A DNA stretch of 58,819 nt from a virus. Its lineage: Duplodnaviria; Caudoviricetes. The stretch covers positions 1-58,819 of IMG/VR virus record IMGVR_UViG_3300037657_000011. One strand, given 5' to 3'. A program made the translations under genes and the position numbers. Below the pieces are notes generated by a model. It saw nothing but the letters and a program-made list of their open reading frames with translations. It did not search any database and was not told where the DNA came from. This document shows, piece after piece, positions 9,300 to 34,460 of this stretch (position 1 is its first letter; the number at the start of each line of letters is the position of its first letter).

Positions 9300-9301
9300 C
9301 T

Positions 9302-16698: not shown

Positions 16699-17599
16699 CA
16701 ACCAGTGGCAACCGCCGCAGTATGGATACGCGGCAAATCCTGATCCGTGGGCGCAATGGGTGCAGTCGGTGACGAGGCAGTCTGTGCCATACGCACCATC
16801 AGTACAACGTCAAATGACGTGGGCTCCTGGCGGCACGGGTCCGCTTGGCTACTATCCGCAGGCATTTGGTACACCTGCTGCCGCCGGACCGAGTGCGCCA
16901 CAAGCACCAGCCGCTAATAACTGGAACGCCCTCTACCCGCAACCGTTTACGGCATGGGGTATCAACCCTAACTACTGGCGGAGTTTGCCAACGCAGCAAG
17001 GAGGGCAACCGCAAGGGTTGCCCCAACAAGGGTTGCCCCAACAGGCGGCGCAGACGATGGCGCAGATACCGGCTGGGCTGGGGATCGGCGGCGCGTCATC
17101 GCTGCCGGGCTGGAACTTCGGGCAATGGGGGCAGAACTGGCAGAACCCGCTCGAAGGTGTGCCGCTTGAGTATTGGGATTACGCGCTGGCATCCTCACAG
17201 TATGCGCTGCCGTGGCAGCAGCAGCAGGATTACAACCGCTGGAAGGGTGAGGAGATCGGGCTGTCGCAGCAGCAGTTGGCGTTGCAGCAGCAAACCGCAC
17301 AGCAGCAGGCGGAGCAATGGATGAAGGAATACACGGCTGCACAGAACCAATGGGCAGCGCAGCAACGGCTGGCGAACGATCAGTTCGATTGGTCGAAGAA
17401 CACCTGGGGGCAGGAGTTTAACCGCGCCAACGTGAACGACGCATGGACGCGCCAGTCTGACCAGTGGACGCAGGCGATGCAAGCCGCTACTAACGCATGG
17501 CAACGCGATCACTCGAAAGAACAGAACCGCATACAGGATCAGGGTAACGCGCTGGCGGCGTGGGGTCGCCGGACGAACCCGCTTATCTCCGCAATGTAA
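16688..17599 (+). CDS. Q/W/N-rich low-complexity protein, candidate internal virion/ejection protein
   Basis: Composition; position ahead of the giant gene; GGAGG upstream. Confidence 0.6.
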   Translation: MATNNQWQPPQYGYAANPDPWAQWVQSVTRQSVPYAPSVQRQMTWAPGGTGPLGYYPQAFGTPAAAGPSAPQAPAANNWNALYPQPFTAWGINPNYWRSLPTQQGGQPQGLPQQGLPQQAAQTMAQIPAGLGIGGASSLPGWNFGQWGQNWQNPLEGVPLEYWDYALASSQYALPWQQQQDYNRWKGEEIGLSQQQLALQQQTAQQQAEQWMKEYTAAQNQWAAQQRLANDQFDWSKNTWGQEFNRANVNDAWTRQSDQWTQAMQAATNAWQRDHSKEQNRIQDQGNALAAWGRRTNPLISAM

Positions 17600-17611
17600 C
17601 AAGGGGGGTGA

Positions 17612-20600
17612 ATGGCTAAGGTCAATACTTCGTGGTGGACTGCGCCTAACGCGATCTCGGCATTTAACGCGAACAATGCGGCGGCGCTGGCTGCGGTGAT
17701 GAACGCGCAGAATCCACAACCGGCACAGGCGAATCAGTGGAACGCGATCGGTCCGGTCAATCCAAACGCTGCGCCTGCTATGCCTGCTTTGGGTCCGGTC
17801 AATCCAAACGCTGCACCCATTGCGCCAACACCAGCGCCATACCAGCCGGTGAACGGGTGGCTGCCGCCCAATAACGTTGATCAGAACGGTGTGCTGCAAT
17901 ACACCTACACGCCTCCGGTTGACCAGACACCGCCTCAATGGGTGCAGACGGCGGCGGAGATTGGGGATGTGCTGGCTGCGCCTTCGAGGGCGGTTAGCAA
18001 TTTGATCTTCCCTGGCAATGCCGCGTATAGACCGGATGCGCTTAAGAGCGATGTGCGGAATCTGTGGCAAGGCAAGACACCAGAATGGTTTGCGCCGGCA
18101 GATCGGTATGAGGGCATTGTGGAACGTGAACTGGCGCGCGACTTCCGCACGGCGGCTAATGCGGCGCAAGCTGGCGATGTGCGTACTGTGCTTGAGAAAA
18201 CCACCATGCAGAGTGCTGCGTCCATGATCCCGCAGACCGTGGAACAGTTCAAGCAGAACCCTAGCCTGTTGAGTGGTGTGCAAGTGGCTATGTCGGCGAT
18301 GGGAGCGATGTTGCCATTGATGCCCAAGGCGCTATTCCCTGTTACCAATGCGCCAACACAGCAGGCAGAGGCGATATTAGGCGACATTATGAGTTACGTG
18401 CCTGTGCCGGGCGGGGCTATCGGCGAGGGGCAGAAGGCGGTTGCCACGCTGGGCGGTCTTGAGCAAACGCTGCAAGACGTACCCGGCACGATGCGCAGGT
18501 TACAGGGTGAGATTGATGCGGTGAAGCGCGGCGAGAAACCACTGCTGACAATCGAGGAAGCGTCGCGCGACTATGCCAACACTATCGCGAAGGCAGTAGC
18601 GGATTACCACGGGCAAGACTTCTCATTGCCATACCGACAGGCTGGCGGTGTATTGGATCGCCCAATCAAAGGCAACCTGAACCTGTACTCCGGCGCGGCG
18701 GCGGTGCTGAGTGGGGATGACCCGACAACCATTGATGAGATTGGCAGATGGGTGGATTATCAGTCGCGCCACATTGTATTTAGTGGTCCAGACGCGCGGC
18801 GTGAGGCGATTGATCGTATCGCACACGGCGAGAATCCGCAGATTGCCATGCGTGGATTGGTAGCACCACCGAAGGATGCGCTGGATGATGAGATCGAGCT
18901 ATGGGAGCAAAGCGTACAGAACCACATGGCGGTGACTGAGCGCGTAGCGTACACGAGCGCGCGGATGGGCGGGGCAACTGACGCAGAGGCGCGCACGGCG
19001 GCGGCGGAAGTGGCGGCTGACGCAGAACGCTTTATATCCGAGTTCGGCATGATCAAGGGCGCAGAGCGTCCACTGTCCGAGGGCATACTACAAACGGCCT
19101 TTGGCTTCTCGCCATTGGACCCGATGAACTATGCCGGATTGGGTAAGCTGTTCGGGTGGCAGAGGCTATTGCCCAAGGCGCGGGCGCAAGGGCAAGCGGC
19201 AACTCTCTCACGGGTATACGAGGCTGCTGCAAAGAACGCGGCTGGCTACACGATGGCGGAGGAAGTGGCGGCGGCGAAGCGCGGTCTGTCGCCGGAGATG
19301 GTGTCGCGCGAAACGGAGGCGAAGCGGACGCTGGGACTAGACACGCAGGGCGATCAGCCTACTCCACGCGCTGAACCGACACTGGCGGACGATCTACCGG
19401 CAGAAGCGCCGGGCGCAAGCGCGAACGCATGGCAGCGATTCGGGGCGCAAGCGTATCTGCAATATGTCAAGATCGCGGAACTACTGCCGCAATCCACGGG
19501 ACACATGGTACAGGGCTATGCGATGGATATGCTGCATAACCTGACCAGAGGGGCGCGCAATGCTGCAGAAGCGGCGCGGCGGATACAAGCCTTTGTGGAT
19601 GAGCCGGGCAGCCTGGTATCGGAGATGGGGAGTGTGCCGCTATCGGTCAAGGCGGAGTTCGCGCGCCCGGTGATCCGCGATGCGATGGACGGCATTATGA
19701 AGGTGCTATCCGGCGCGGGTGACAGGCTGGATCATGGCGCGCTGCTGGAAGGCTGGCTGAAACCTACCGAGATGGCGGCGAACAAGCTGAGTAACGTCAA
19801 GCCATTGGGGGAGCGTTCGGTGCTGGAACGTTGGGGCGCTGGCGTGAAGGGCTGGCTGGGCGAGTTCGCGCTGCGTACACCTGGCTATGCAATCCGCAAT
19901 GCGATCAGCGACAGCGTGGTCATGGCGATGGATGGTGTCTATTCGCTGGACACCTACAAAGACCTGACCAAGTTCTTAGGCAAGTACAAGATTGACAGGG
20001 CGTTGATTACCGGCAAACGTCCAGAGGAGATGCGTGAATCGAAGTTAAGCCGTGTGCCGGTGATCGGCACGGTGCAGAATGCCATCGGCAGAATGAACGA
20101 AGTATGGGATGACGGCAGGCGCGTTCGCGCGTTTACTACGGCATTCCGGCAGTTCATGGGCGCGAACTATAAACCCATCATCAGCGAGGGGGCGAAACAG
20201 ATATTGGGACCGCAGTTCGGTGACGCGGTGGCGAAGCTGGAACAGATGTGGCGGACTGGATCGTCCACGCAGGAGATACGCCAGATGTATGAGGCGGTCA
20301 TCTCTCCGCGCACGGCGATGGACGACTTCAACATTATGGGCGCGCTGGAATCGCGGGGCATACCGTCTGATGCGGTATCGCCCGAGCTGGGCGCGCGGGT
20401 GTGGGGGGAGCTGCGCAGGGCAACCACGGATATAGAGGTTAATCACATCCTGGACAAGTACGAGGATATGATCATCCAAGACCAGCAGGCGCGCATGGCG
20501 CTGATGGGTGACGTGGTATCTCCGAAAGGCATCACTGAAAAGACGGTTGAGATGGACGCGGAAGAATACCGCGCGATGCTCAACAAGATAACCGAGAAGG

Positions 20601-23600
20601 CGGTGAAGGCTGGCGCAATGTCGCAAGAGGACGCGGTGAAAGCTGCGGACGAAATGGCGCGCCAGGTGTTCGAGTATGAGGTAACGATTCATAACGCGCG
20701 CGCATCCATTGGGCAGGCGTTGGCATATCTCGGTGATGGCGCGGACCTGCAACGCGCCCATGCGCTGATCGCGTATGCGATGGATATGGAGTATTCCATC
20801 CGCAACACGGCGCGCGAGAACCAGCACAAGCTATACCTGCAAACGCTTGACCGGATCAATAACACGCGCGGGATATTGCGGCGTGATGGGATCGGCATAC
20901 GCCGGGCGTGGGACGAATACCGCAGGCTGAATGACGGCGAACAACGGACGCGGTTGCGGGAGATCGCGGAGATTCATAAGTGGACGGCGGACGCGATCAT
21001 TCGCAGCAGCACGGATTGGGATGGGCTATTGAGGGAGCGCCCGGACATTGCGAAGGCGGCGAACACGGCTGACCGGCTGTTGGAACAGGCGATGGACTTG
21101 GTGCGCAAGGGCGGCGTAGAGGACTTTGAGGCGGTGCTGCTCGGCAATCGCACACGGATAGACCTGGGCAGGCGAGAGGCTTACCGGCAGGCACAGGTGG
21201 TATCACGCGCTGAACCGGAATTGGCGGCGCATGTGTTTGACGTGCTGCTATCCACGGAGAAGGATGTGCAGATGGCGGCGGCGCGCACGGTGGGATCGGT
21301 GCGGCTGGAACTGGCGCGTAAAGATGCCGGCATGATTGACCTGGCGGAATACGACACGCGGGTGAACGCGCACTGGAATCATTACTTCGACTTTGCAGAA
21401 AACCGCTATGGCAAGTACGCGCAGGCGCAGTTGCTATGGATGCAGGTGCGCAATAGCGCAGTAGCGAAGGGGATGCGCGCGCTGGGATGGGAGGATGATG
21501 CCATTGCTGACCTGTTCGGCAAGACGGAACAGGCAGAGGGCATGATTCGGGCGCAGGAGATTCTTGATAAGCGGATACGCGGCGATGTTACACCGGAGCC
21601 TAAACCTGTGCGGCGTGAGAGAGCGCCGGTAGAACCTGAACCGGCGCGGTCATTGTTGGAACAAGCGGATGAGGCTGCACCTGAAACACCGGCTGCACCA
21701 CGCCCACGGGCGGAGATAAGTTATCCGTATGACGTGGACGCGCTGGACGGGACGAAGGTGGTGCTGGCGGACGCGGTGCGCGAAATACTGGATAACAACA
21801 TCGAGAACGCGATGGATGTGGCGGCGCGCTTTAACTTGGGAGAGTATGAGGCGGGGATGCTGCTACGGGCGGCAAAGGCTACGACTGGCGGTGAGCGCGC
21901 GCCGGGCAAAGCTGGGCGCGAAGCACGGGCAGTCGGCAGCACACCGGATAAGAAGTACCGGCTGCGTCGGTGGCTGGCTGATCTGGATGACGTGATTCCG
22001 TCGAACACGGCAAGCGGCGCGGTTGATCCGCGGTATCCGGCGCATTTCCAGCCACGGGATAGAACACGGCAGGGTATGCAGCAGCAGGTTAATAAGATGG
22101 CGCTGGCGTTTGATTCGGATGCCGTCTTAAGTGACTTCCGCGTAGTGGGGCGCGGCGCGCCAACGGCTGTATCTATGAACGGCAAATGGTATGTGGTGGA
22201 TGGCAACGGCAGAACGCTACTGCTAAAGAAGATTAAACAGGATGCGCCGGAGAAGTACGCGCAATACCTGGACGATCTCAAGAGCCGGTTGGCTGAGAAC
22301 GGATTTACCGAAGCGGACCTTGAGGGGATACGCACTCCGGTGCTGATCAGTGAGTTGTTGGATGACGTTGATGTAGTGGAGTTTGCGCGTGAGGGCAACG
22401 TGCAGCAGAGTATGGCAATGTCGCCGTTCGAGGAGGCGCGCATTGATGCCACGCGCCTACTGGATGATGCCGTTACCAAGCTGGCAATCGGTGAAGATCA
22501 GACAGTGGACGAGGCGATCACGTCACTGGACAATCAGCAATTGGTGATTGGATTCATCCGCACCCTGCCGGAGACTGATCGCAATAAGTTAGTGACGAAA
22601 AATGCCACATCGCTGAACCAAGATGGCATTAACCGGTTGAAACATGCGCTGTTCGTCAAGACATACAACAGTGAATCCGGCATACGGCTGGCAGAATCGT
22701 TTATCGAGAGCGCGGATAGCGGGGTAAAGAACATCGAGAATGCCATGTTTGCCAGTTTGGGGCAGATGGCGCGCGCGGAAACGCTGGCGAATAGCGGGGC
22801 GCGCGATGCGGGGCTGGCGATTGCGGATGACTTGGCGATTGCGGTTGAGGGGTTGGCGCGGATGCGCAGGTCGAGGCAGAAGCTACTCGACTTTATAAAC
22901 CAAATACCAATTGACGGCGGTCAGGAATTGACCAAAGTACAGAAGGCATTGGTCGTTTTCTTCCACGAAAACGCCGGAGCCGTCAAGACGATGCGCGAGT
23001 TCATGCGCAACTACGCGGCGGCGGTTGAGAATCAGCCTGGCAGGGATTCACCGGGGATGCCTGGCATTGATCTTTCGATGACGAAACAGGAGATCGTCTA
23101 TAAGCTGGTCGCGGATGTGCAACGGGCAAAGGAAGATGCGGCAAAGGCGAAGCTATTTGGTGAGCCGCTCTATCCATCGCCGTATGACAGTGCGGTTAAT
23201 CCGCGAGAAGCGGCGGACGTGAGTGTACCAACGGAGGCAGACAGTGGAAGGACATTCGATAGCCAACACGCATATCGAGTTGCTGGACCCGGAGAAGATA
23301 CGGGAGTTGACGGACGAGATGCTACTGCAGGAGATGGAGTTTTACGGGCTGACACCATTTCTATTGAAGTTGAAACTAGACCTGACACAACTCCCGAAAT
23401 GGCGCGAGTTGGCAGAAACCTTGTTGCTGACCTGGAATTACAGGATAGATCTAACCAAGCGGGGCAGGCTGTACGTGCAGGAGAGAATGGGCAGACCGGT
23501 GTACGGCGGCAAGGCAGAGTAACTACTGTCGCCTCGCGGTTGGCGGATTCGCTGCGCATTGATGGCACAGCATCACTCATTGGGCAGAGGGTACAAACCG

Positions 23601-26600
23601 CGCAAGACCTCGGCACACTGGCGCAGGTGTTCCGTGATCCACGCTACGAAACTGCGCGCTACTTCTTCATTGACGTAGATGGCAAGGTCATCGGGGAAAC
23701 CGGCGTGTCCTCACGCCTGCCTGGTATCAGCGTTATTGCGCCGGAAGGCGTAGAAGACGATATTGCGTGGCTCAAGGGACTGATAAAGAGCCACAATGCC
23801 GCACAGGTATGGCTGATGCACAATCACCCCAGCGGCTATGTCAATCCTAGCCAACCCGATATGCAGGGGACGGCGCAGATCGCACACGCACTAGGCGAAG
23901 CCTTTGGCGGTCACATCATTATTGACCACAATAAGTTTTTGATGATGACGCGCAAGATGGACGTTCCTATTGAGAGTGGGGGGCGCTTCTTGAATTTTTT
24001 CAATGTCGAGGAAGTGAGAGTACCCACCAGTGAGCCAACGGATGCGGAGGTAGCCGACTTTGCGGCAAGGCAAACGCCGGAACACCTGCAAGAGATCGAG
24101 GCTATTTATGATCGTGATCCGGTTATTGCGATCAGACACATTATCAGGCAAGATAAGCAGACTGATCCGCTGCTGAATCGGGAACCGGGCGATGTAAACA
24201 TAGGCTGGAAAGTGCCTGGTATGGGGTCAGACTTCGCGCGCAACCTGTTCTACATTGGAAAGCAGTACATGACCGGAGATCATCCTGTGTTGATGGGATT
24301 GGGCGCGGATTACACATTGCAAGCCATCGGAACACAGGTCATCGAGGATATCCGCGCACAGGATGGGATGCGGATTGCGGCGCAGATACGCGCGTTTGGG
24401 CGCAATAACGGGGCGCGGCATGTGGCGATGCTGATACCGAAAAATTTGGCGGACCTGAGTCAGGACGACTGGCGGCTGATTGACTTCTCGATCACCACTA
24501 AACTGCTGATGGATGTGGTCACGGTGGATGGGCGCAGCGTGAGGAGCAATTCAGAGGCAAGCCCTTCTGCTTGGATGGAATCGCAAGGCGTGGAGTTGGG
24601 GACGATACCGAAGGGGCGCACACTTTGGGACCCCGGAACGCAGATAGATATGTTCGGCAACTACGTCTTTGACGATGCGCCGAAACCGGCAGAACAACCA
24701 CGGCAAGCGGCGCAACCGGCACGGCAAGAGACACCTCGGCAGGCGGCGCCCCAGCAGCAGGCAGAGACACCTCGGCAAGCAGAACAACCACGGATGGCGG
24801 CGCAGGCTGAACAACCACGGCAAGCGCAACCAGAGACACCACGGGCGGCGCAGATACCGGCAGAGCCGAAGCAGGTCACGGCTGAGAACATCACAACCCA
24901 AGATGCCATTGAGATGTTGCAGGATGGGAGGCTAACCGGACACCAGCTTAATGAGATTGGTCCGCTGTTAAAGCAGGAAAAGCTAGTCCAGCGAGCTATC
25001 GGCGGGGGCATAGATGGGGAGCGCGTGTATGTAACGCCGACTGGCAAGCAGGTTCGCTACACCGATACGCGCGTTTATCGGTTTAACAATGGCAAGACAG
25101 CGAAGATAACGCTGACGGGATTTGACCGTGAGCATATGTCCATCAGCCACGATCTATATGAGATACCTGATCTCACATGGGATGGGGCGGATGCACTCAA
25201 CCAGCAGTTGAGGAATAGCCCGGTCATCCCGTTTGAGCAGGATCAACGGGCGCGCATCGCGGACGTGCTGAACGAAACGAAGCCGATGACGCGCGCGGAT
25301 GTGCGCGGGGCGCTTGAGGCGGTGGCGCGGGGTGAACTGGATCCCGAGATGGTAAGCGCGGCAGTCAAACAGGGCATAGAGGATATTGAACGCAGAGCCG
25401 CGCCGGTGCGCAGAACGGGAGTGTACAAGCTGCCGGATGGGACGGAATTGCAGTATGACGGCGTGGGCTTGCTGGGCGGCAGCGGGTCATATCGGGTGAC
25501 GCTGTACATGCATGATGCCGATGGCAACCAGAAAACGATTTATCAGTTTGCGCCTGCGAACCTGACGGCAGCATCGGCGCAGCGGTCCGCGCTATTGCGG
25601 CAGATAACTGGAAGTGGTACAACTATTACAGGGGGCGCAAATGCTAGACCAACTACTACCCAACCAAGAGGAGCAACCGCAGGAGATACCGCCCGAACTG
25701 GCGGGGCAAGGGGAACAGGCACTACCGCCCGAACTGGCGGCGCTGATGCAGCAGCAGGGGCAAGCGATGCCGGACGAACTGGCAGGGCTGTCAAACCCAC
25801 CAAGCGAGGATCAGATGATTCCTGGCTCGGCGGACTCTTTGCCCACATCCCCGATGAGCAGCCTACCGCTACCCGTGGACGAACTGAGCCAACCACGGGC
25901 GGAGCTGATGCCGCAGGAAGAACCGGCGACAGCGGAGGACGACGATCCCTGGCAACTGAAACACCCGCACCAGATACCGCAACACGCCTCGATCAAGGAG
26001 GAGATACGCAAGCAGTGGAAACTGGCGGATCCGAAGCGGTACAAGGCGCTGGTGAAGAAGGGGGAGCTGGAAGCGGAAGTGCAACTGGCACACGACGAAC
26101 ACGTCCAGACGTTCGGGGCGTACATCGAGGCGGGAGCGGGGTATTACCCGGCATTGGAGATGGCACGGGCAACGTGGAAGTGGGAGACACCGGAGGAAGA
26201 ACACCCGCTGGACAAATACTCGATCAAGAAGTACGGGATACCGATGCCGGAATACATGCACGAGGGGGACGAGGAAGCGGAGAGGATAATGCGGGAGTAC
26301 CGCAAGACACATCCCTACGCCTAGACGATGCGCCGGACAGCCTCAAGGCTGAAACCGAGGCGGTGCGAAATGACGAAGCCAGGGCGATTGATGAGGCGTG
26401 GAGCGCGCTGACTGACACAGAGCGCGGACAGTTTACGGACTGGCTGACCACCAGCACACACCCCATCGCAGGCGAGAAAGTTCCACTGGCAACCAAGTAC
26501 CATATCCTCTCGCGCGTGTTTGCAGATGAGATCAATGATGAGCCGCGATCGGTCCGGCGCGGCAATGGCAACTACGACTACCTCATCACGGAGAAGGATG

Positions 26601-29600
26601 CGATAGGCGCAGGAGGCGCGCGCACCAAGTACAAAGCCAACATCGAGGCAATCCGCATCCTCAAGGCAATTGAGGAAGAAGGCAGATACGCTTCGCCGTA
26701 TGAACAGGCGGCGCTGGTGCGGTATGTCGGTTGGGGCGGCTTGTCTCAGCCGGTGAACACGCTCAAGTATTACCCTGATTGGCATGACGCACAGCGCGAA
26801 GTGCGCGGTATGCTCACGCCGGCAGAACTGGAATCGGCGGGATTGTCCACGCCAAACGCGCACTTTACCAGCATCCCCATTGTTGATGCGATGTGGGGGA
26901 TCATGCAGCGGTTGGGCTTTGGCGGCGGGAGAGTGCTGGAACCGGCTGGCGGGATTGGTCACTTCCTCGGCAGGATGCCGCGCGATGTGTACGCGAAGTC
27001 CACGATGACGCTGGTCGAGATGGATAGCCTGACGGCGCGCATTGCCAAGCAGTTGTATCAGAACGCGGACGTTCACGAGAAGCCGTATCAAGAGGCGCGC
27101 ATCCCGAACAACTGGTTTGACCTGAGCATATCGAATGTGCCGTTTGGGAACTACGCGGTCTATGATCCAGCCTTCCGCGATAACAAGGCGCTGACAAGCA
27201 GCATCCATAATTACTACTTCGCCAAGTCGCTTGAGCATGTGCGCCCTGGCGGGGTGATCGCTTTCATCACCAGCCGGTACACAATGGATTCGATGGGCGC
27301 TGAAGTGCGGCAGTACATCGCTGATCGGGCGGAGTTGATCGGCGCGTTCAGACTGCCCAATACGGCGTTCGAGGGTAACGCGAATACGAACGTCACCACG
27401 GACGTGCTATTCCTGCGCAAGCGCGCGCCGAGTGAGGAAAAGACCGGACCGGCGTGGGTCAAGACGGTGAAGCAAACTGATCCGGTAAGTGGGCGCGAGT
27501 ACGACATCAACGAGTATTACGCGAGTAATCCCGATATGCTGCTGGGGCGGATGGAAGTGACCGAACACGGCAACACATCCGGCAATGAGTGGCAACCGAA
27601 CCTGATGCCGACACGCCCACTAGAGGAAATGCTGCCGGAAATTGTGGCGCGCTTCCCCGAGAACATCTACACCGAGGGCATCCACGTCGAGGCGGAGGAA
27701 GCGCAGATGGTGGCGGCGATGGCGGAGTTCAAGCTAAAGAAGCGTGTTGTCGAGGGGCAATACATGGTGATGGACAGCAGGCTGCACAAGGTTGTGAAGG
27801 GCGCGCCTGTGCCAGTGCAGTTTGACGTGCATAAGACGGCGGCGCTATCGGATGGCGCGCGGCTGGTCGAATCGCTGCAAACCACGCTGGCGGAGATGAT
27901 GAATCCGAACAGCACGGATACCAGCATCGGTACGCACCAACAGACGCTTAACACGCAATACGATACGTTTGTGAAGCGGTACGGCAGGGTGAACGATGCG
28001 AGAGTGGCGGAGTATTTTGCGGATGATCCCCTGTATCCACGCCTGTTGAGCCTTGAGAAGAAGAACGAATGGGGCGCATGGGATAAGACGGACGTATTCA
28101 GCAAGCGCGTAGCCGGCGCGGGAATTGCGATCACGCAGACGGACAGCGCGCAAGAGGCGTTGTATGCGTCACTGTTCAAGCACAATAGCGTTGATCTCGG
28201 CTACATCAGCCAACTGCTGCGGCGCGGACGCGATGAGACGATTGAAGCGTTGGGGGAAATGGTGTACCACGATCCTGACGGGATGTACGTGACGAAGGCG
28301 GAATACCTGTCGGGCGATGTAGTGGGCAAGCTAGAGGAGGCGCGTGTCGCGGCAAAGACGGATGAACGATACCAGCGCAACGTCGAGGCGCTTGAGAAGG
28401 TGCAGCCTGAGCGCATCCCTGCGGGGAAGATCACCGCGCGGTTAGGGTCGCCGTGGATTCCTCCTGATGTGATCGAATCGTTTATTACCTCACTCAGCGG
28501 CGCGAAAGTGGCGGTCGAGCATATTGACGGCACGACTGACTGGAACATCAGTATCAAGCAAGCTGGCAAAGAAGACATGATGTTGCAGTACCAGACACCC
28601 GACGTTAGTTTCATGTATCTGGTGCGGCAGGCGTTGGCACTCAAGCAGCCTACCGTTACATTTAAGGATGCTGAGGGCAGAGAGCATATTAACCAAAGAG
28701 CAACCGAGGCGGCGCGCGAGAAGCAGGCGAAGATCAAAGAGGCGTTTGAGAAATGGGTGTGGCGTGATCCGGCGCGCATGGGGCGGCTGGAAGATTTGTA
28801 CAACCGGACGTTCAACTCGTATATCCCGCGCACATGGGATGGGGCGCACATGCAGTTTCCGGGGATGAACCCGCAGATCACGCTCAACCCACACCAGAAG
28901 GCAGGCGCATTCCGTATTGTGTCGGGGCAGAATGTTTACCTGGCGCATGGCGTTGGAACGGGCAAGACGTTCACGATGATCGCCGGTGGGATGGAATTGC
29001 GGCGGTTGGGCTTGCGCCGTAAGCCGATGTATGTTGTGCCCAATATGATGTTGGAACAGTTCGAGCGAGAGTTCAAGCTGCTGTATCCAATGGCGAACAT
29101 TCAGGTCATCAGACCGGACGACTTAACGCCGGTGAAGCGTCCGCGTATGGTGGCGCAGATCGCAACCAGCGATCTCGACGGCGTGATTGTGTCGCACGAG
29201 ACATTCGCGCGCTTCCCGGTTAGCGCAGAAGCACGGGCGGAGTTCATGCGCAAACAGATCGCTGACCTGGACGATATGATGAAAGGTCGGGGCGATGAGA
29301 AATCGTGGCGTTTCAAGCAACTGCAAAAGCAAAAGCTGGATTTGGAGGCGCGGCTGGAGAAGATGCTATCCGGTAAGAAGGACGACGCTACGCTGTTCGA
29401 GGAGTTGGGCGTGGATCAATTGTTCGTGGATGAGGCACATGCGTTTAAGAATCTGCGCTACACCACACGGCTGGACGGCGTAAAGGGCATGGGATCACCA
29501 GAGGGCAACATGAAAACGATGGATATGATGCTCAAGGTGCGCTTGCTCAATAAGATGAATGGCGGCGGCGGCGTGGTTTACTCGTCCGGCACACCAGTAT

Positions 29601-32600
29601 CGAACTCGCTGGCAGAAACATACACCATCATGCGCTACCTGCAGCCAGACACGCTTGACCAGTTGGGGCTGCGGACGTTTGACGCATGGGCGGGATCGTT
29701 TGCGGAAGTGGTGGAATCAATGGAGAAAACCGCGACTGGCGCAAAGAAGTCGGCGCGGCTGAGTGGTTATGTGAACATGCCGGAGCTGCGTTTCCTGATG
29801 AGCGAAACCACGGACATTAAGACACAGGACACGCTCAAGCTATCCGTGCCGAAGATCGAGGGCGGCGAACCGCAGTCGGTTGTCGCTGAGAAGTCGCCGG
29901 AGATGAAAGCGATCATCGCGGATCTGGTGAAGCGCGCCAAGTATCTTGAGCAGAATCCCGGCGAGGCAAAGAAGAAGGGCGGAGATAACATCCTGGTCAT
30001 TAACGGCGATGCGAAGGCGGCGGCGCTCGACATTCGCACTTACGCGAAGGGCTTGCCGGATGTGCCGGGGAGCAAGCTGAACACCGTGGTAAAGAACGTG
30101 TTGGATATATACCAGCAGACCAGCAATTACCACGGGACACAGATGATCTTCTGCGACTTTAGCAAGCCGAAGAAGCACGGCGGCGGACAGCGCACGGGAT
30201 TCAGCGCCTACGATGACATTATCGAAAAGCTGGTTGCGGGGGGCATCCCGCGTAATGAGGTCGTCAGCATCTACGATTGGGACACGCCACAAAAGAAGGC
30301 GCAACTCAATAAGCTGGTGAACGAGGGTAAGGTGCGCGTGGTGCTGGGCAGCACGGATAAGCTAGGCACAGGCACAAACATGCAGCAACGGTTGTATGCG
30401 GCGCACCATTTGGACATTCCGTACACACCGGCAAAGATGGAACAACGTAATGGGCGCGTGGTACGGCAAGGCAACCTGCACGTCCAATGGGACAAGCCGG
30501 TGAAGGTGCTGAACTACGTGACCAAAGGCACGTTTGACGAGGTTATGTGGGCGCTGCTGCGAAAGAAGGGATCGTTTGTCGCCACGTTCATGAGCGAGAA
30601 ACCGCTGGGGCGCAAGGGCGTGGATGATAGCGCGTTGGTGCTGAACGCGCGGCAGATGGAGATGGCATCGTCTGACGATCCAACCATGCTGCGCCAGGCA
30701 GAACTAGAGAACGACATACAGCGATACGAGAACCTACACGCGGAATATCTGTACCAGCGGCAACAGAACGGAGTGCGGATCAGCCAGGGCGAAACAAAGC
30801 TGGAACGGCAGCGGCAGGACGCGCAGGTTTTATCACGGGCGGCGGCGACATACCGAACTGAGAAACAGAAGCCGTTTAGTATGCGCTGGAACAACGAGAC
30901 ACACTCGGCATGGATTGACAAGAACGCGCGCACGACTGTGAATAACGCGATGATCGCGTGGGCGAAGGATCCCGGCGAAGCGCCTCCGGCTGGCGAGGTC
31001 AAGCCGCTGGGCGAAGTGCAGGGCTTGCGGCTGGAATGGGATGGCAGATATGATTCGCCGGATGCCAAGTTCAGGGGAGTAGAACACCTATTCCATGCGT
31101 CACCGGAAGGGCGCAAGATGATCGAGGCGCAGATGGAAGTGGGACCGGTGATCCGCGTGGTATCGGATTACTACGGCGGCGAGACTGTTGGCAAGTTCAT
31201 CCTATCGCCACGGGACGGCGCGCAAAACATTACGCGGTTGGAGAACATACTGACCGGGTTAGAGGCGCGGAAAGAGGCGGCGATCAACAGTATGCGCGAC
31301 ACGGAGAACCTACTGCGCGAATTGCGGATGCAGATGGCACAGCCGTTTGAGCATGATATGGTGTGGGATCGCTCGAAGGTGGAGCTGGCAGACCTCAAGA
31401 GCAAGTTCAGCGTACAGGACGAAGTAATTGACGAGGTGGACGCAATCGAGCGCAATGAGGATTACACGGGGCGCGAGGCGAAGGTATTCCAGGAGGAGGG
31501 CGCGCCTGATCCGTATGCCGCGCTCAACGATGAACAGATCGAGGCGGCGGCGCTGGCGGATGCGCCTGTGCCGGTGGATGGACTGGTGGCGCAGGATGCA
31601 GACGCGGAGATGACCGGCAATACCGGCGAGACACACGCGCACCAAAGCCTGCTCGACTATGTGACCAAACAGCAGCTTGAGGCGTTGAACGCGATACGCG
31701 ATGGGGCGTTGAAGCATCTCGGAGATGCGCCCAAACGCACGAAGCCTACACTCTCGGCGGATCAGTTGAAGGTGCTAGAGGCGGAAGTGCAGCAGGCGGT
31801 GCGGCAGTTGAATGAAACCGTGGACGCTGGTAAGACTTATGCCAATGAGCGCAGTAACTTCGCGCTGATGGACTACGGCAATAAGCGCGGTTTCGATCTG
31901 TGGCTGTCGTCTATTGCGCCGTTCTACTATTGGGCGACACGCCAGGGCAGAAACTTCATCCTGCGCGCGTTGGATAATCCGCAATTCCTGATCGCCTACT
32001 GGCGCTACAAAGAGGCGATGAAGAAGCACAACAAGCGGCGCGGCACACGCAAGCGGTTTGAGACTGCGTTCCGCATCCCTACGCGCGATCTGACTGGCGG
32101 GGCGATGGATGATGTGTATTGGGATCCGACAAGCGCGCTGTTCCCGTTTGACCAGATGTACGGTGAGGGATATGACGAGGAGGCTACTGGACTGCAGGGG
32201 ATGTACAACACGGCAAGCCAGTTCGGTATGCGCCCACATCCGGTGATTGACGTGCCGCTGCGACTGACCGGCGCGCTGACCAGTAAGTCACCCAACCAAG
32301 AGGGGTATGAGGCAGAGCAGGCGGAATGGGGACCGGGCAGCGTGGGTAAGCTGCTGCAACAGTCCAGCTTGGTGCAAGCGGTGTCGGCGGCGCTGGGCAT
32401 GGGTCCGTCTGGAATGGGGATTAATCCCGAGTCGCCGTTGCGTAAGGCGCTGGGGCTGACTGAGACAGAAGGGTTTGACGCTTATCGTGTGGGGCGGTCA
32501 ATCTCCAACATGGCGGCGGAACAGAACAAAGCCTACGGGGAGCAGTTTGACCGCAGACCATACCTCGCGGCGCAGGAGTTTGTCGCCAAGCATGTAAGCG

Positions 32601-34360
32601 ATCTGCCCACGGCGCTGACCAGCATGAAGCCGGCAGAGATCGCGGCGGAATTGGGCATTGATCCGACAATGGCGGCTTACGCGCTGCAAGTGGCACAAGC
32701 CGCGGCGCGGATGGCGGCGCAAGAGCGCGGGACAAGCCAAGTGGCGAGTATCCTGGGCGGACAGCGGCTTGTCGCGCATCCGCAAGGGGAGTATGAGCGC
32801 GCCGAAATGAGCCGACAGGAACGCGGCGCGGCATGGAATCCAGCCACACAACAGGGCAGCCGGGTGGATGTGCAAGCGGTACAGCGCGCGAATCCGGCGC
32901 TGGAAGTTCAACGGGCGCAGTATGGGACGCTGCCTGGCGAACAGAGCGATTACCGATGGCTGTATGACCGCGCGATGCAGGACGAGATCAATACCAAGTT
33001 TGACGCGCTGAAAGAACAGGTGATCGTAATGCGTCCGTGGGATCGCAAGGCGGGATATGCGATTGAAGATGCGCGGCGCGCTGCGCTTGATCGCGTGGAC
33101 CGCGACAAGGTGAGTAGCACGGCGGCATGGCAGGACGACTATCTCAGGGCGATGAACGCAACGGCTGGCACAAACGCGGTTCCGCAATCGGTATCACCGG
33201 CGACGGCGCTACAAAGCTACAAACCGCGCAGCGTGGCGGGGGCGAATCCAACGGAGAAGTTGGAGATACGGCAGCAGGAGATCATGCAGCAGGTTAGCCG
33301 GACGCAACCACGGGCTGAATCCTTTATGACACCACAGGGCGAGATTGACTACAAAGCCTACCGGATGGCGCTGGACGAGTGGCGCGGATCGCTGGGCAAA
33401 GTGGCGGCTGGACTACCGGCTACACAGTTGATCATGGCGAAGGCGACAGAGGAAGGCAATGCGGCGACGATGAAACAGTTTATGGCTGGGCTGACCGGCG
33501 ATCAACTGGATCAATATCGCTGGCGGTATGACACGCCACTAGAGGCGGCGCAACGGACGTACTACGAGGCGATCTACACGCCAGTCATGGAGGCATATGT
33601 CACCATGCGCGATCAGGGCGATACCGAGGCGTGGGATAAGACGATTGGGGCGGTGGGCGCAATCGCCGGACCGATGCTGGCAGACCTGACTAACCGACTG
33701 TATCAGGGGCGGTTCACGCCTGAGCAGTTGGCGGAAGTGCAGCGGATTAACATACCGGCGATGGCGGAAGTGATGCGGTTGAATCAGGGACCAGAAGCGA
33801 AGGCAAAGACGGCGGCGCGTGATGACTTCTGGAACACCTATAACAATGGGATACCGCCAGGGAGCGCGGCATACGAGATCAAACAGAATCCGCTGGTGGC
33901 GCTGATACTGGACAGGGACAGCCGAGGCACAGCCACAACGGAACAGTACGAGATAGCATCGGCATCCATGCGGCAATACGTGGTGCAGAACTACGGGGGA
34001 GTGCAGCCGGAATGGACGCAGGCGCGCCAGGAGAAGACGGATTTGGATAAGGCGCTGTCAGCGCAGTACGGGGCTGATGCTCCGGCGCTGGTGCAGGCGT
34101 ATGACTTCGCGGGTAACGCTGAACAACAGGCGGCGCTACGGGCGCAGTATCCGATTCTGAACACGATCTTGTTGATGCGGTATCAGTATGAGCAGGCGCA
34201 TCCGGTGTACGCGCTGTACTACTCGCGCAAGGTGGCGAAGTCTGAGCAAGCCGGAGTGGGGATCGCGGCGCCTGCTGGCGCTGCGCCGAGTGGCGGCGGC
34301 ACAACTGATACGCGCACGAGCGAGTTGGGAGTGTTGAAAGTGCGCAAGGTCGGCAGATAG
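17612..34360 (+). CDS. Giant 5582-aa polyvalent DarB-like virion protein: DdrB-like ParB, JAB/RadC, N6-MTase and SNF2 helicase domains
   Basis: FQPRDR/GAP/VVDGNGR (~21950-23100); HNHPSG..PSQPD (~23820); VLEPAGGIG and NVPF (~26930-27150); AHGVGTGKT, DEAH, QRNGRVVRQGN (~28940-30480). Confidence 0.9.
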   Translation: MAKVNTSWWTAPNAISAFNANNAAALAAVMNAQNPQPAQANQWNAIGPVNPNAAPAMPALGPVNPNAAPIAPTPAPYQPVNGWLPPNNVDQNGVLQYTYTPPVDQTPPQWVQTAAEIGDVLAAPSRAVSNLIFPGNAAYRPDALKSDVRNLWQGKTPEWFAPADRYEGIVERELARDFRTAANAAQAGDVRTVLEKTTMQSAASMIPQTVEQFKQNPSLLSGVQVAMSAMGAMLPLMPKALFPVTNAPTQQAEAILGDIMSYVPVPGGAIGEGQKAVATLGGLEQTLQDVPGTMRRLQGEIDAVKRGEKPLLTIEEASRDYANTIAKAVADYHGQDFSLPYRQAGGVLDRPIKGNLNLYSGAAAVLSGDDPTTIDEIGRWVDYQSRHIVFSGPDARREAIDRIAHGENPQIAMRGLVAPPKDALDDEIELWEQSVQNHMAVTERVAYTSARMGGATDAEARTAAAEVAADAERFISEFGMIKGAERPLSEGILQTAFGFSPLDPMNYAGLGKLFGWQRLLPKARAQGQAATLSRVYEAAAKNAAGYTMAEEVAAAKRGLSPEMVSRETEAKRTLGLDTQGDQPTPRAEPTLADDLPAEAPGASANAWQRFGAQAYLQYVKIAELLPQSTGHMVQGYAMDMLHNLTRGARNAAEAARRIQAFVDEPGSLVSEMGSVPLSVKAEFARPVIRDAMDGIMKVLSGAGDRLDHGALLEGWLKPTEMAANKLSNVKPLGERSVLERWGAGVKGWLGEFALRTPGYAIRNAISDSVVMAMDGVYSLDTYKDLTKFLGKYKIDRALITGKRPEEMRESKLSRVPVIGTVQNAIGRMNEVWDDGRRVRAFTTAFRQFMGANYKPIISEGAKQILGPQFGDAVAKLEQMWRTGSSTQEIRQMYEAVISPRTAMDDFNIMGALESRGIPSDAVSPELGARVWGELRRATTDIEVNHILDKYEDMIIQDQQARMALMGDVVSPKGITEKTVEMDAEEYRAMLNKITEKAVKAGAMSQEDAVKAADEMARQVFEYEVTIHNARASIGQALAYLGDGADLQRAHALIAYAMDMEYSIRNTARENQHKLYLQTLDRINNTRGILRRDGIGIRRAWDEYRRLNDGEQRTRLREIAEIHKWTADAIIRSSTDWDGLLRERPDIAKAANTADRLLEQAMDLVRKGGVEDFEAVLLGNRTRIDLGRREAYRQAQVVSRAEPELAAHVFDVLLSTEKDVQMAAARTVGSVRLELARKDAGMIDLAEYDTRVNAHWNHYFDFAENRYGKYAQAQLLWMQVRNSAVAKGMRALGWEDDAIADLFGKTEQAEGMIRAQEILDKRIRGDVTPEPKPVRRERAPVEPEPARSLLEQADEAAPETPAAPRPRAEISYPYDVDALDGTKVVLADAVREILDNNIENAMDVAARFNLGEYEAGMLLRAAKATTGGERAPGKAGREARAVGSTPDKKYRLRRWLADLDDVIPSNTASGAVDPRYPAHFQPRDRTRQGMQQQVNKMALAFDSDAVLSDFRVVGRGAPTAVSMNGKWYVVDGNGRTLLLKKIKQDAPEKYAQYLDDLKSRLAENGFTEADLEGIRTPVLISELLDDVDVVEFAREGNVQQSMAMSPFEEARIDATRLLDDAVTKLAIGEDQTVDEAITSLDNQQLVIGFIRTLPETDRNKLVTKNATSLNQDGINRLKHALFVKTYNSESGIRLAESFIESADSGVKNIENAMFASLGQMARAETLANSGARDAGLAIADDLAIAVEGLARMRRSRQKLLDFINQIPIDGGQELTKVQKALVVFFHENAGAVKTMREFMRNYAAAVENQPGRDSPGMPGIDLSMTKQEIVYKLVADVQRAKEDAAKAKLFGEPLYPSPYDSAVNPREAADVSVPTEADSGRTFDSQHAYRVAGPGEDTGVDGRDATAGDGVLRADTISIEVETRPDTTPEMARVGRNLVADLELQDRSNQAGQAVRAGENGQTGVRRQGRVTTVASRLADSLRIDGTASLIGQRVQTAQDLGTLAQVFRDPRYETARYFFIDVDGKVIGETGVSSRLPGISVIAPEGVEDDIAWLKGLIKSHNAAQVWLMHNHPSGYVNPSQPDMQGTAQIAHALGEAFGGHIIIDHNKFLMMTRKMDVPIESGGRFLNFFNVEEVRVPTSEPTDAEVADFAARQTPEHLQEIEAIYDRDPVIAIRHIIRQDKQTDPLLNREPGDVNIGWKVPGMGSDFARNLFYIGKQYMTGDHPVLMGLGADYTLQAIGTQVIEDIRAQDGMRIAAQIRAFGRNNGARHVAMLIPKNLADLSQDDWRLIDFSITTKLLMDVVTVDGRSVRSNSEASPSAWMESQGVELGTIPKGRTLWDPGTQIDMFGNYVFDDAPKPAEQPRQAAQPARQETPRQAAPQQQAETPRQAEQPRMAAQAEQPRQAQPETPRAAQIPAEPKQVTAENITTQDAIEMLQDGRLTGHQLNEIGPLLKQEKLVQRAIGGGIDGERVYVTPTGKQVRYTDTRVYRFNNGKTAKITLTGFDREHMSISHDLYEIPDLTWDGADALNQQLRNSPVIPFEQDQRARIADVLNETKPMTRADVRGALEAVARGELDPEMVSAAVKQGIEDIERRAAPVRRTGVYKLPDGTELQYDGVGLLGGSGSYRVTLYMHDADGNQKTIYQFAPANLTAASAQRSALLRQITGSGTTITGGANARPTTTQPRGATAGDTARTGGARGTGTTARTGGADAAAGASDAGRTGRAVKPTKRGSDDSWLGGLFAHIPDEQPTATRGRTEPTTGGADAAGRTGDSGGRRSLATETPAPDTATRLDQGGDTQAVETGGSEAVQGAGEEGGAGSGSATGTRRTRPDVRGVHRGGSGVLPGIGDGTGNVEVGDTGGRTPAGQILDQEVRDTDAGIHARGGRGSGEDNAGVPQDTSLRLDDAPDSLKAETEAVRNDEARAIDEAWSALTDTERGQFTDWLTTSTHPIAGEKVPLATKYHILSRVFADEINDEPRSVRRGNGNYDYLITEKDAIGAGGARTKYKANIEAIRILKAIEEEGRYASPYEQAALVRYVGWGGLSQPVNTLKYYPDWHDAQREVRGMLTPAELESAGLSTPNAHFTSIPIVDAMWGIMQRLGFGGGRVLEPAGGIGHFLGRMPRDVYAKSTMTLVEMDSLTARIAKQLYQNADVHEKPYQEARIPNNWFDLSISNVPFGNYAVYDPAFRDNKALTSSIHNYYFAKSLEHVRPGGVIAFITSRYTMDSMGAEVRQYIADRAELIGAFRLPNTAFEGNANTNVTTDVLFLRKRAPSEEKTGPAWVKTVKQTDPVSGREYDINEYYASNPDMLLGRMEVTEHGNTSGNEWQPNLMPTRPLEEMLPEIVARFPENIYTEGIHVEAEEAQMVAAMAEFKLKKRVVEGQYMVMDSRLHKVVKGAPVPVQFDVHKTAALSDGARLVESLQTTLAEMMNPNSTDTSIGTHQQTLNTQYDTFVKRYGRVNDARVAEYFADDPLYPRLLSLEKKNEWGAWDKTDVFSKRVAGAGIAITQTDSAQEALYASLFKHNSVDLGYISQLLRRGRDETIEALGEMVYHDPDGMYVTKAEYLSGDVVGKLEEARVAAKTDERYQRNVEALEKVQPERIPAGKITARLGSPWIPPDVIESFITSLSGAKVAVEHIDGTTDWNISIKQAGKEDMMLQYQTPDVSFMYLVRQALALKQPTVTFKDAEGREHINQRATEAAREKQAKIKEAFEKWVWRDPARMGRLEDLYNRTFNSYIPRTWDGAHMQFPGMNPQITLNPHQKAGAFRIVSGQNVYLAHGVGTGKTFTMIAGGMELRRLGLRRKPMYVVPNMMLEQFEREFKLLYPMANIQVIRPDDLTPVKRPRMVAQIATSDLDGVIVSHETFARFPVSAEARAEFMRKQIADLDDMMKGRGDEKSWRFKQLQKQKLDLEARLEKMLSGKKDDATLFEELGVDQLFVDEAHAFKNLRYTTRLDGVKGMGSPEGNMKTMDMMLKVRLLNKMNGGGGVVYSSGTPVSNSLAETYTIMRYLQPDTLDQLGLRTFDAWAGSFAEVVESMEKTATGAKKSARLSGYVNMPELRFLMSETTDIKTQDTLKLSVPKIEGGEPQSVVAEKSPEMKAIIADLVKRAKYLEQNPGEAKKKGGDNILVINGDAKAAALDIRTYAKGLPDVPGSKLNTVVKNVLDIYQQTSNYHGTQMIFCDFSKPKKHGGGQRTGFSAYDDIIEKLVAGGIPRNEVVSIYDWDTPQKKAQLNKLVNEGKVRVVLGSTDKLGTGTNMQQRLYAAHHLDIPYTPAKMEQRNGRVVRQGNLHVQWDKPVKVLNYVTKGTFDEVMWALLRKKGSFVATFMSEKPLGRKGVDDSALVLNARQMEMASSDDPTMLRQAELENDIQRYENLHAEYLYQRQQNGVRISQGETKLERQRQDAQVLSRAAATYRTEKQKPFSMRWNNETHSAWIDKNARTTVNNAMIAWAKDPGEAPPAGEVKPLGEVQGLRLEWDGRYDSPDAKFRGVEHLFHASPEGRKMIEAQMEVGPVIRVVSDYYGGETVGKFILSPRDGAQNITRLENILTGLEARKEAAINSMRDTENLLRELRMQMAQPFEHDMVWDRSKVELADLKSKFSVQDEVIDEVDAIERNEDYTGREAKVFQEEGAPDPYAALNDEQIEAAALADAPVPVDGLVAQDADAEMTGNTGETHAHQSLLDYVTKQQLEALNAIRDGALKHLGDAPKRTKPTLSADQLKVLEAEVQQAVRQLNETVDAGKTYANERSNFALMDYGNKRGFDLWLSSIAPFYYWATRQGRNFILRALDNPQFLIAYWRYKEAMKKHNKRRGTRKRFETAFRIPTRDLTGGAMDDVYWDPTSALFPFDQMYGEGYDEEATGLQGMYNTASQFGMRPHPVIDVPLRLTGALTSKSPNQEGYEAEQAEWGPGSVGKLLQQSSLVQAVSAALGMGPSGMGINPESPLRKALGLTETEGFDAYRVGRSISNMAAEQNKAYGEQFDRRPYLAAQEFVAKHVSDLPTALTSMKPAEIAAELGIDPTMAAYALQVAQAAARMAAQERGTSQVASILGGQRLVAHPQGEYERAEMSRQERGAAWNPATQQGSRVDVQAVQRANPALEVQRAQYGTLPGEQSDYRWLYDRAMQDEINTKFDALKEQVIVMRPWDRKAGYAIEDARRAALDRVDRDKVSSTAAWQDDYLRAMNATAGTNAVPQSVSPATALQSYKPRSVAGANPTEKLEIRQQEIMQQVSRTQPRAESFMTPQGEIDYKAYRMALDEWRGSLGKVAAGLPATQLIMAKATEEGNAATMKQFMAGLTGDQLDQYRWRYDTPLEAAQRTYYEAIYTPVMEAYVTMRDQGDTEAWDKTIGAVGAIAGPMLADLTNRLYQGRFTPEQLAEVQRINIPAMAEVMRLNQGPEAKAKTAARDDFWNTYNNGIPPGSAAYEIKQNPLVALILDRDSRGTATTEQYEIASASMRQYVVQNYGGVQPEWTQARQEKTDLDKALSAQYGADAPALVQAYDFAGNAEQQAALRAQYPILNTILLMRYQYEQAHPVYALYYSRKVAKSEQAGVGIAAPAGAAPSGGGTTDTRTSELGVLKVRKVGR
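23244..23522 (+). CDS. Candidate overprinted gene 1, +1 frame inside the giant gene
   Basis: GGAGG 6 nt before GTG; helical globular-looking 92-aa product; host frame is linker-like here. Confidence 0.5.
   Translation: MEGHSIANTHIELLDPEKIRELTDEMLLQEMEFYGLTPFLLKLKLDLTQLPKWRELAETLLLTWNYRIDLTKRGRLYVQERMGRPVYGGKAE
24684..24870 (+). repeat. Coding repeat (QPRQA/ETPRQA units) in the giant protein
   Basis: Repeated AACAACCACGG and AGACACCTCGGCA units. Confidence 0.7.
25641..26324 (+). CDS. Candidate overprinted gene 2, +1 frame inside the giant gene
   Basis: AGGGGG before ATG; 227 codons open; ordered C-terminal domain; host frame is a G/T/R/D-rich linker over the same span. Confidence 0.65.
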   Translation: MLDQLLPNQEEQPQEIPPELAGQGEQALPPELAALMQQQGQAMPDELAGLSNPPSEDQMIPGSADSLPTSPMSSLPLPVDELSQPRAELMPQEEPATAEDDDPWQLKHPHQIPQHASIKEEIRKQWKLADPKRYKALVKKGELEAEVQLAHDEHVQTFGAYIEAGAGYYPALEMARATWKWETPEEEHPLDKYSIKKYGIPMPEYMHEGDEEAERIMREYRKTHPYA

Positions 34361-34392
34361 GTGTAGAATAACCGCAACAGCTTAGGCAGAAC

Positions 34393-34433: not shown

Positions 34434-34460
34434 GGCTGAATTAGCTTAGGCGGAATACGT

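Follow-up and report, generated by a model that had tools for sequence, protein, structure and literature searches.

Polyvalent proteins, as defined by Iyer, Burroughs, Anand, de Souza, and Aravind in 2017 (PMC5512222), carry many unrelated conflict domains in one chain, are encoded beside phage packaging genes, and were predicted in that account to be delivered with the DNA. The DarB-like gp69 of phage JC1 (4,515 amino acids [aa], 22.1% of the genome) was reported as virion associated by mass spectrometry (PMC9144972), and gp47 of phi24B (2,811 aa, polyvalent) was described as present in the virion and proposed as an ejection protein (bioRxiv 10.64898/2026.04.10.717836). DarB and DdrB of phage P1 are both described as head packaged, and the head of phage SU10 is reported to contain five ejection proteins (PMC9509320). 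Here, we report a computational analysis of a giant polyvalent protein encoded by a viral genome of 58,819 nucleotides (nt) (IMG/VR record IMGVR_UViG_3300037657_000011, positions 1 to 58,819; this whole stretch is called the window), which is probably packaged in the capsid and ejected at infection as an anti-restriction protein built of a carrier and its cargo.

The gene is a single open reading frame (ORF; positions 17612 to 34360, plus strand) that starts with ATG and runs for 5,582 codons free of internal stops (translation table 11). It takes up 16,749 of the 58,819 bp, or 28.5% of the phage genome, in agreement with the share of about 28% and the single frame noted earlier from the letters alone (the sequence-only reading). 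The product (614 kDa; pI 5.6) contains one cysteine (C4181). The record has an exact 127-bp direct repeat at its termini and is classed by IMG/VR as having direct terminal repeats.

The protein consists of two conserved end modules and a variable middle, a layout seen directly in its relatives. Querying 1.84 billion representatives with aa 1 to 1200 (HMMER) returned 27 proteins at an E value of ≤1e−3, a word-indexed search with the C-terminal end returned nine shorter proteins, and profiles of the two ends found both modules in 22 stored proteins of 1,628 to 7,981 aa. The stretch between the modules of these proteins was 39 aa at its shortest and otherwise 287 to 5,711 aa. When 16 relatives were scanned with Pfam, ddrB-ParB was found in 4 (one of these scoring slightly under the cut-off and one bearing RadC as well), ART-PolyVal in 1, a small methyltransferase (MTase) domain in 1, and nothing above the cut-off in 10. 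The end modules are the conserved part that defines this rare family, here called the carrier, and the middle, or cargo, is a variable insert. The longest relative (P0002) has a cargo of 5,711 aa and fills approximately 40% of its 60,052-bp contig; PF28553 to PF28555 are listed for it, and additional blocks separate its ParB from its JAB and its JAB from its MTase.

The ends had earlier been set aside as unassigned helical sequence. That they belong to no known family was borne out, and the C-module is predicted to be all alpha (AF2 model; pLDDT 75.9, pTM 0.64; no convincing fold neighbor), but their conservation across the family makes them more than mere helical sequence. Neither aa 1 to ~1400 nor aa ~4620 to 5582 gave a significant match in Pfam, PHROGs, NCBIfam, PADLOC, or PDB sequences, and PDB sequence searches with four pieces spanning the entire protein returned nothing meaningful. 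Against 50,697 phage records, the N-module (1,400 aa) had no match by tblastn, the C-module matched only five near-identical uncultured records (23% identity over 23% of the query), and the whole gene had no match by megablast. In the ESM Atlas, both modules fell only into unnamed viral clusters (0.90 to 0.93). A weak Atlas lead (0.87 to 0.88) to LPD38 as the identity of the end modules was rejected on hhalign comparison with the ends of 12 LPD38 proteins (probability, ≤9.4%), and the giant protein had no LPD family at an E value of ≤0.01 in Pfam. The C-module occurred at one locus in 185,579 species genomes (L008; open frame 2 to 12472, at least 4,157 aa, no cysteine), on a 44.9-kb contig binned to a Thermoflexales (Chloroflexota) metagenome-assembled genome, which is possibly a host lead or possibly a misbinned phage contig. 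No description of this carrier was found in the literature searched on polyvalent, ejected, and podovirus proteins, although word searches cannot exclude a published sequence-identical protein. New here are the carrier family itself, with its clean carrier-plus-insert layout, the size range of the family (up to the 7,981 aa of P0002), the joining of ddrB-ParB and RadC in one phage protein, and the recurrent active-plus-degenerate RadC pair described below.

A chimeric assembly, named earlier as an outcome that would undo the reading, or genes merged through sequencing error, is hardly credible as the origin of the ORF. The record comes from a short-read metagenome assembly, and the three groundwater-metagenome runs (X1, X2, and X3) whose Logan contigs contain the stretch may be its own source sample, in which case their support is not independent. 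In X1, however, one 23,948-nt contig crosses positions 16000 to 35900 without a single difference, in X2 and X3 the interval is tiled by contigs that break only at small strain-variant bubbles, depth is even, and no joints were reported in the contigs of the three runs. A 1,963-aa fragment from a different contig (P0003) is 99.9% identical by BLASTP; P0002 has the same domain order (44 to 65% identity in shared parts), and P0015 (3,275 aa) the same module order, with identities of 30 to 65% for the two together. Chance, moreover, cannot give 5,582 stop-free codons. Neither the contigs nor the relatives hold any evidence that the giant gene is an assembly artifact. Strain-variant clusters lie at positions 24958 to 25012, 28394 to 28459, and 34467 to 34552 (X2 and X3 contigs); the first is within the PRQ-rich linker of the giant chain, and the last, which includes a 1-base deletion in one contig, is situated where the scaffold-like ORF begins. 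No RNA runs were listed among the sequencing runs holding the stretch.

Two enzyme blocks of the cargo proposed in the sequence-only reading, a DdrB-like ParB domain and an MTase-helicase, were recovered by profile searches. Pfam PF18763 (ddrB-ParB) matched aa 1446 to 1581 with 54.2 bits against a cut-off of 27.6 (E value, 2e−14; profile positions 3 to 119 of 121), and phrog_5143 (E value, 3e−44) and phrog_2299 matched aa 1455 to 1808. The translation carries the ParB motif DGNGRT at aa 1530 to 1535, which we read as containing the conserved arginine of the ddrB-ParB family. PHROG_10089 (“DarB-like antirestriction”) covered aa ~2717 to 4628 (E value, 0; 1,442 bits), and the motifs were all found in the translation: MTase motifs I (EPAGGIG, aa 3110 to 3116) and IV (NVPF, aa 3175 to 3178) and helicase motifs I (GVGTGKT, aa 3780 to 3786), II (DEAH, aa 3940 to 3943), III (SGTPVSN, aa 3992 to 3998), and VI (QRNGRVVRQGN, aa 4278 to 4288). 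For the helicase, SNF2-rel_dom scored 29.4 bits (cut-off, 24.9) and Helicase_C 23.3 bits (slightly under its cut-off of 23.5), and phrog_62 (DNA helicase) matched with an E value of 9e−39; Pfam matches to ResIII and Eco57I MTase were both under the cut-off. NCBIfam and PADLOC added nothing beyond generic matches to RadC, MTase (MAD2-like), and SNF2 (DrmD-like), all far under their cut-offs. In the linker before the MTase, two similar units of ~100 aa were noticed by eye only (~24890 to 25540; aa ~2430 to 2640), each consisting of a helical part and, after it, a small piece rich in strands; a similar unit precedes the MTase of P0002.

The DarB-like module is widespread. As a 1,751-aa tblastn query, it matched 144 phage records, 36 of them at ≥80% coverage and 34 to 36% identity; examples are Vibrio phage VvAW1, Pseudomonas phage Itty13, Klebsiella phage LASTA, Burkholderia phages DC1 and CSP3, Erwinia phage PEp14, and many Ralstonia phages. 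The JC1 gp69-type DarB-like virion protein of Bcep22-like podophages is the nearest precedent for the giant protein. In these phages (Lessievirus; Bcep22 gp75, JC1 gp69, and the 4,650-aa DC1 gp67), the protein is likewise one very large chain of a ~60-kb temperate phage, its gene takes up 22% of the JC1 genome compared with 28.5% here, and the MTase and SNF2 core is homologous (DC1, 34.8% identity over 82% of the 1,751-aa query). This core is all that the two have in common, however, the N-module being unmatched in the phage records searched. In addition, the JC1 paper (PMC9144972) mentions that no DdrB homolog was found in Lessieviruses, whereas a ddrB-type ParB is fused here, and in those phages the gene closes the morphogenesis block, whereas it adjoins a portal-like gene here.

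DarB of P1 is also a homologous MTase-helicase (26.8% identity over 41% of the query by tblastn; E value, 2e−16), and the ParB domain of the giant protein is of the DdrB type. The P1 gene darB (L010) directly adjoins prt, which encodes the portal, in divergent orientation, a loose parallel to the position of the giant gene. In P1, though, DarB and DdrB are separate genes of a myovirus, whereas here they are fused with further domains, and the C-terminal metallopeptidase described for DdrB (PMC5512222) was not found in the giant protein. With several unrelated conflict domains (Pfam, PHROGs) in one chain flanked by the large terminase (TerL) and an SU10-type major capsid protein (MCP), the giant protein corresponds in domain content and gene setting to the polyvalent proteins of Iyer et al. 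(PMC5512222), its delivery along with the DNA being presumed, and its MTase and SF2 helicase, homologous to DarB within one chain, are of the DarB family. It has the polyvalent families ddrB-ParB, RadC, MTase, and SNF2, with ART-PolyVal in a relative; its carrier modules differ in matching no LPD or other Pfam family. Iyer et al. placed RadC and ddrB-ParB in different element classes (PMC5512222), as far as that account goes; because both co-occur in one chain here, and in at least nine other database proteins, this published separation no longer holds.

Cysteine is suppressed throughout the chain. One residue in 5,582 compares with approximately 49 expected from base composition and with 0.75% in the phage’s other genes (binomial P = 2e−17), and the suppression extends into the enzyme domains of the cargo. 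Of the 22 relatives with both modules, 20 have no cysteine and 2 have one. The same holds for ejected proteins of known phages (N4 vRNAP gp50, 0 of 3,500 residues; T7 gp15, 0 of 747; T7 gp16, 0 of 1,318) and for the DarB-like DC1 gp67 (0 of 4,650); among further controls, T7 gp14 has 1 in 196 residues and N4 DNA polymerase 12 in 859. According to the paper on phage DEV (PMC11445570), suppression of cysteine is conserved among the ejection proteins of Schitoviridae; passage through the periplasm is cited there as a suggested cause. Twelve unrelated LPD38-bearing polyvalent proteins (P0043 to P0119; 1,466 to 2,857 aa) had only 0 to 4 cysteines each, and cysteine suppression may be general to phage polyvalent proteins.

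The position of the gene is also conserved. The order of portal-like ORF, optional ORF, giant gene, ORF of ~250 to 276 aa, MCP, and adaptor-sized ORF of ~280 aa was kept in all loci examined, namely, the window, three (L002, L004, and L006) of six IMG/VR loci, and one 41.8-kb “Podoviridae sp.” genome with a distant 2,156-aa relative. The portal position is filled in relatives by ORFs of ~584 to 641 aa; a SU10-adaptor match was obtained for the adaptor-sized ORF of the window only. The location “between portal and scaffold” given in the sequence-only reading is supported by position, TerL and the SU10-type MCP flanking the block, but neither neighboring ORF matches a profile.

Together with its homologs in virions, this layout leads us to regard the giant protein as probably a capsid-packaged, ejected polyvalent anti-restriction protein. 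Its carrier, the N-module (~1,400 aa) and the C-module (~920 aa), both cysteine free and of no described family, would be packed in the head of a temperate, short-tailed-like phage with an SU10-type capsid and leave it through portal and tail when the phage infects, in the manner of N4 vRNAP and T7 gp15/gp16. The end modules may serve packaging and entry, and the cargo enzymes would have been inserted between them in evolution, in this phage in the order ddrB-type ParB, RadC-type JAB with a degenerate copy, long disordered linker, and DarB-like N6-adenine MTase with SNF2 helicase. On entry, the DarB-like part would act in cis on the incoming phage DNA, blunting restriction, and the ParB and RadC parts may act on nucleotides or nucleic acids. 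Both end modules are retained even by members nearly free of cargo, which favors for these modules a function in structure or entry over an enzymatic one. With N4 vRNAP and T7 gp15/gp16, the giant protein has in common its large size, a gene within the virion-gene block, and little or no cysteine; comparisons of sequence and fold revealed no similarity, however, and their RNA polymerase and transglycosylase domains are absent from it, so that the likeness is proposed as a working principle and not as membership.

The giant protein could instead be an unpackaged, late cytoplasmic enzyme complex, for example one methylating progeny DNA before packaging, that came to lie among the head genes by chance insertion. 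Packaging is only inferred here, and the phage has other modification genes (an N6/N4 MTase and a glycosyltransferase-methyltransferase; Table 1), but the conserved gene position in all relatives examined, the retention of both end modules in members almost without cargo, the family-wide loss of cysteine even from enzyme domains, and the mass-spectrometric assignment of the DarB-like JC1 gp69 to the virion (PMC9144972) make this very unlikely.

Several points weigh against packaging and ejection. Both are argued by analogy. No similarity of the N- and C-modules to known ejection proteins, tape measure proteins, or LPD38-type polyvalent proteins could be detected. In a Kyte-Doolittle plot (19-residue window), only aa 219 to 237, a weak hydrophobic stretch, passed 1.4, and there was no other membrane-span candidate. 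Nor did the giant protein show a peptidoglycan hydrolase domain, whereas T7 gp16 has a hydrolase and the CSP3 homolog is annotated as “soluble lytic transglycosylase/helicase/methylase.” Position does not transfer directly from the Bcep22-like phages, because the DarB-like gene there ends the morphogenesis block and is not portal adjacent. Cysteine loss is not universal among packaged proteins, because P1 DarB has 9 cysteines in 2,255 aa, and other virion genes of this phage are also cysteine poor (the 695-aa ORF 1 and the 303-aa ORF 0). Finally, the portal and scaffold labels are putative ones given by position. The earlier proposal of an injected, all-in-one anti-defense and ejection protein gains comparative support from the four domains, the head-gene synteny, the low cysteine content, and the virion-borne homologs.

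The JAB region is a tandem. The first domain (JAB1) has the residues E2013 plus HNHPSGYVNPSQPD (aa 2070 to 2083 of the translation), and all 23 sequences of an alignment share the JAMM residues E, H, H, S, and D, as expected of the intact metal motif proposed earlier. RadC (PF04002) matched aa ~2060 to 2112 with 33.3 to 38.4 bits against a cut-off of 22.1, only profile positions 61 to 116 being aligned. In an AF2 model of aa 1960 to 2360, the domains had a pLDDT of 80 to 93, and Foldseek with this model gave RadC (PDB 2qlc) an E value of 1.3e−7 compared with 2.7e−4 for CSN5; as modeled, JAB1 appears to resemble RadC 2qlc far better than any deconjugase. By Pfam, NCBIfam, and fold, JAB1 is RadC type. 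The Chlorobium tepidum RadC of 2qlc is a small stand-alone protein, whereas here the domain is embedded and followed by a degenerate second copy. A search with aa 1950 to 2370 found 93 proteins, mostly polyvalent proteins of 1.2 to 3 thousand aa (kaa) that also bear ART-PolyVal, LPD38, LPD39/PLxRFG, ddrB-ParB, zeta-toxin-like, or GGDEF domains.

The second, degenerate JAB-like unit had been suspected at ~24240 to 24540, and its core was placed at 24221 to 24538. BLASTP of unit 2 against JAB1 and a Pfam scan of unit 2 at an E value of ≤10 returned nothing, but hhalign against the JAB1 profile gave a probability of 93.4% (E value, 2.5e−7) over 75 columns that stay in register until HNH is replaced by LIP, and helix and strand order in the AF2 model is the same in both. 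On this profile-profile comparison and the model, we accept unit 2 as a putative degenerate, metal-free JAB copy. A unit-2 profile (built from four copies) was present in 25 stored proteins and lay directly behind JAB1 in 24 of them, which suggests that a degenerate second copy commonly accompanies the RadC-type JABs of polyvalent proteins.

What the tandem does can be read in more than one way. According to the sequence-only reading, the JAB domain might counter ubiquitin-like (Ubl) conjugating defenses, that is, act as a deconjugase removing Ubl modifiers of host defenses (Bil-like or CBASS Cap2-like). The JAMM motif, intact and invariant in the alignment, would suit such an enzyme, and the pairing of an active with a degenerate domain is reminiscent of the MPN+/MPN− pairs Rpn11-Rpn8 and CSN5-CSN6. 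Pfam and NCBIfam both assign the domain to RadC, however; Iyer et al. (PMC5512222) argued that RadC-type JABs, described there as being without the Ub-tail groove, are likelier to act on nucleic acids or nucleotides; and there is no known Ubl, E1, or E2 context for the host. We consider a deconjugase unlikely, and the deubiquitinase idea is unsupported because the JAB is RadC type.

The tandem may alternatively be an internal peptidase that cuts the giant protein at its long disordered linkers, either as the head matures or once ejection has taken place, and in this way releases the enzymes from the carrier. JAB enzymes are metallopeptidases, as established for the deubiquitinase clade, and no other peptidase domain was found in the 5,582 aa (Pfam, PHROGs, NCBIfam). 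The cargo blocks are flanked by long low-complexity linkers, the tandem recurs in many other polyvalent proteins of 1.2 to 3 kaa, and polyvalent proteins usually bear a processing peptidase according to Iyer et al. (PMC5512222). We nevertheless rate this role as rather doubtful: no JAB match was found in P0012, which has a 2,572-aa cargo, or in P0013 and P0016 (~1,460 aa each), the available text of Iyer et al. (PMC5512222) records no peptidase activity of RadC, and no cleavage site can be named. A broader and still speculative proposal, to which we assign a low probability, is that the N- and C-modules are a new protein-injection carrier of a rare environmental podophage lineage, with an insertion site between them for 0.04 to 5.7 kaa of foreign, cysteine-purged enzyme cargo and with the RadC-type JAB pair as built-in release peptidase. 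For the packaged and ejected anti-restriction protein that we favor, the JAB pair would be one cargo among others.

Table 1. Features of the giant gene and its surroundings (positions in the window; aa numbering of the giant protein)
Feature	Position	Strand	Remarks
N6/N4 DNA methylase with Mrr-like/“NACHT-associated inactive restriction endonuclease” domain	3-1541	+	Pfam
M23 peptidase ORF	9302-9835	+	Overlaps bacterial-SH3-domain ORF (9781-11028), upstream of terminase
Large terminase TerL	11660-13216		phrog_2
695-aa ORF, portal-like	14345-16432	+	Labeled by position after TerL and size only
303-aa ORF	16688-17599	+	Q/W/N/P-rich, 0 Cys, no family match
Whole giant ORF	17612-34360	+	5,582 aa; covered by contigs of three runs without joints
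N-module	17612-21811	+	aa 1-~1400, profile core aa 181-1379; first ~100 aa Q/N/P/W-rich
ddrB-like ParB domain and conserved extension	21947-23035	+	Domain aa 1446-1581, extension to aa ~1808
JAB1, RadC-type JAB/MPN+ domain	23579-23953	+	aa ~1990-2114; E2013, H2070, H2072, S2080, D2083
Unit 2, putative degenerate JAB-like domain	24221-24538	+	aa ~2204-2309; LIPKNL in place of JAB1 HNHPSG, no metal ligands
Linker region	24704-26308	+	aa ~2365-2899; PRQ-rich stretch, two ~100-aa units, ~240-aa G/T/R/A-rich low-complexity stretch
DarB-like module (N6-adenine MTase, SNF2 helicase, conserved tail to aa ~4628)	26309-31495	+	PHROG_10089
C-module	31469-34240	+	aa 4620-5543; invariant P-F/Y-x-Y/F-W-x-T/S-R-Q motif at aa 4770-4779
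276-aa ORF, scaffold-like	34475-35305	+	Labeled by Q/E/A/R-rich composition and position directly before MCP
SU10-type MCP	35333-36496		Pfam, E value 1e−49
ORF with SU10-adaptor match	37266-38114		Pfam, 24.9 bits, just under cut-off of 27
1,616-aa ORF			Between adaptor-like ORF and collagen-like fiber
Family-2 glycosyltransferase with class-I methyltransferase domain	47016-48368	+	Among tail genes, just before collagen-like fiber
Collagen-like fiber	48369-51605		
Serine integrase	51898-53499	opposite	

Among the neighboring genes (Table 1), the 695-aa and 276-aa ORFs had no portal or scaffold profile match, and the 695-aa ORF had no PDB sequence match. When the end modules and the portal-like, 303-aa, and scaffold-like ORFs were compared with PHROGs at an E value of ≤1, the best match was a portal PHROG (E value, 0.24), which is not significant. 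The 276-aa product is helical looking and charged, as judged from its translation. In relatives, the slot of the 303-aa ORF holds a different ORF (454 to 501 aa; annotated “lysin motif” in MW202608) or none, and the first ~100 aa of the giant protein are similar in composition to the 303-aa ORF. The methylase ORF starts at the first bases of the record and is a second DNA-modification gene of the phage. The M23 peptidase and SH3-domain ORFs are possibly a lysis or wall-degrading pair.

Giant phage proteins of the polyvalent kind have been described before, some of them with a proven place in the virion. The carrier-plus-cargo family makes the coupling of such cargo to the entry machinery open to tests of which part packaging and ejection require and what role each cargo plays, over a range from nearly nothing to 5.7 kaa that includes ParB, RadC JAB, ART, MTase, and MTase-helicase. 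Cysteine suppression, described for Schitoviridae, also marks the carrier family, the DarB-like giant of DC1, and the LPD38-type polyvalent proteins examined, and it may offer an inexpensive way to predict ejected proteins. At 40% of a 60-kb contig, the 7,981-aa relative stretches the share of its genome that a phage spends on one presumably injected protein. If the carrier reading with a JAB release peptidase is true, the phage would deliver almost any activity to its host ahead of its DNA, and the peptidase would be the first biochemical role for the long-orphan RadC clade.

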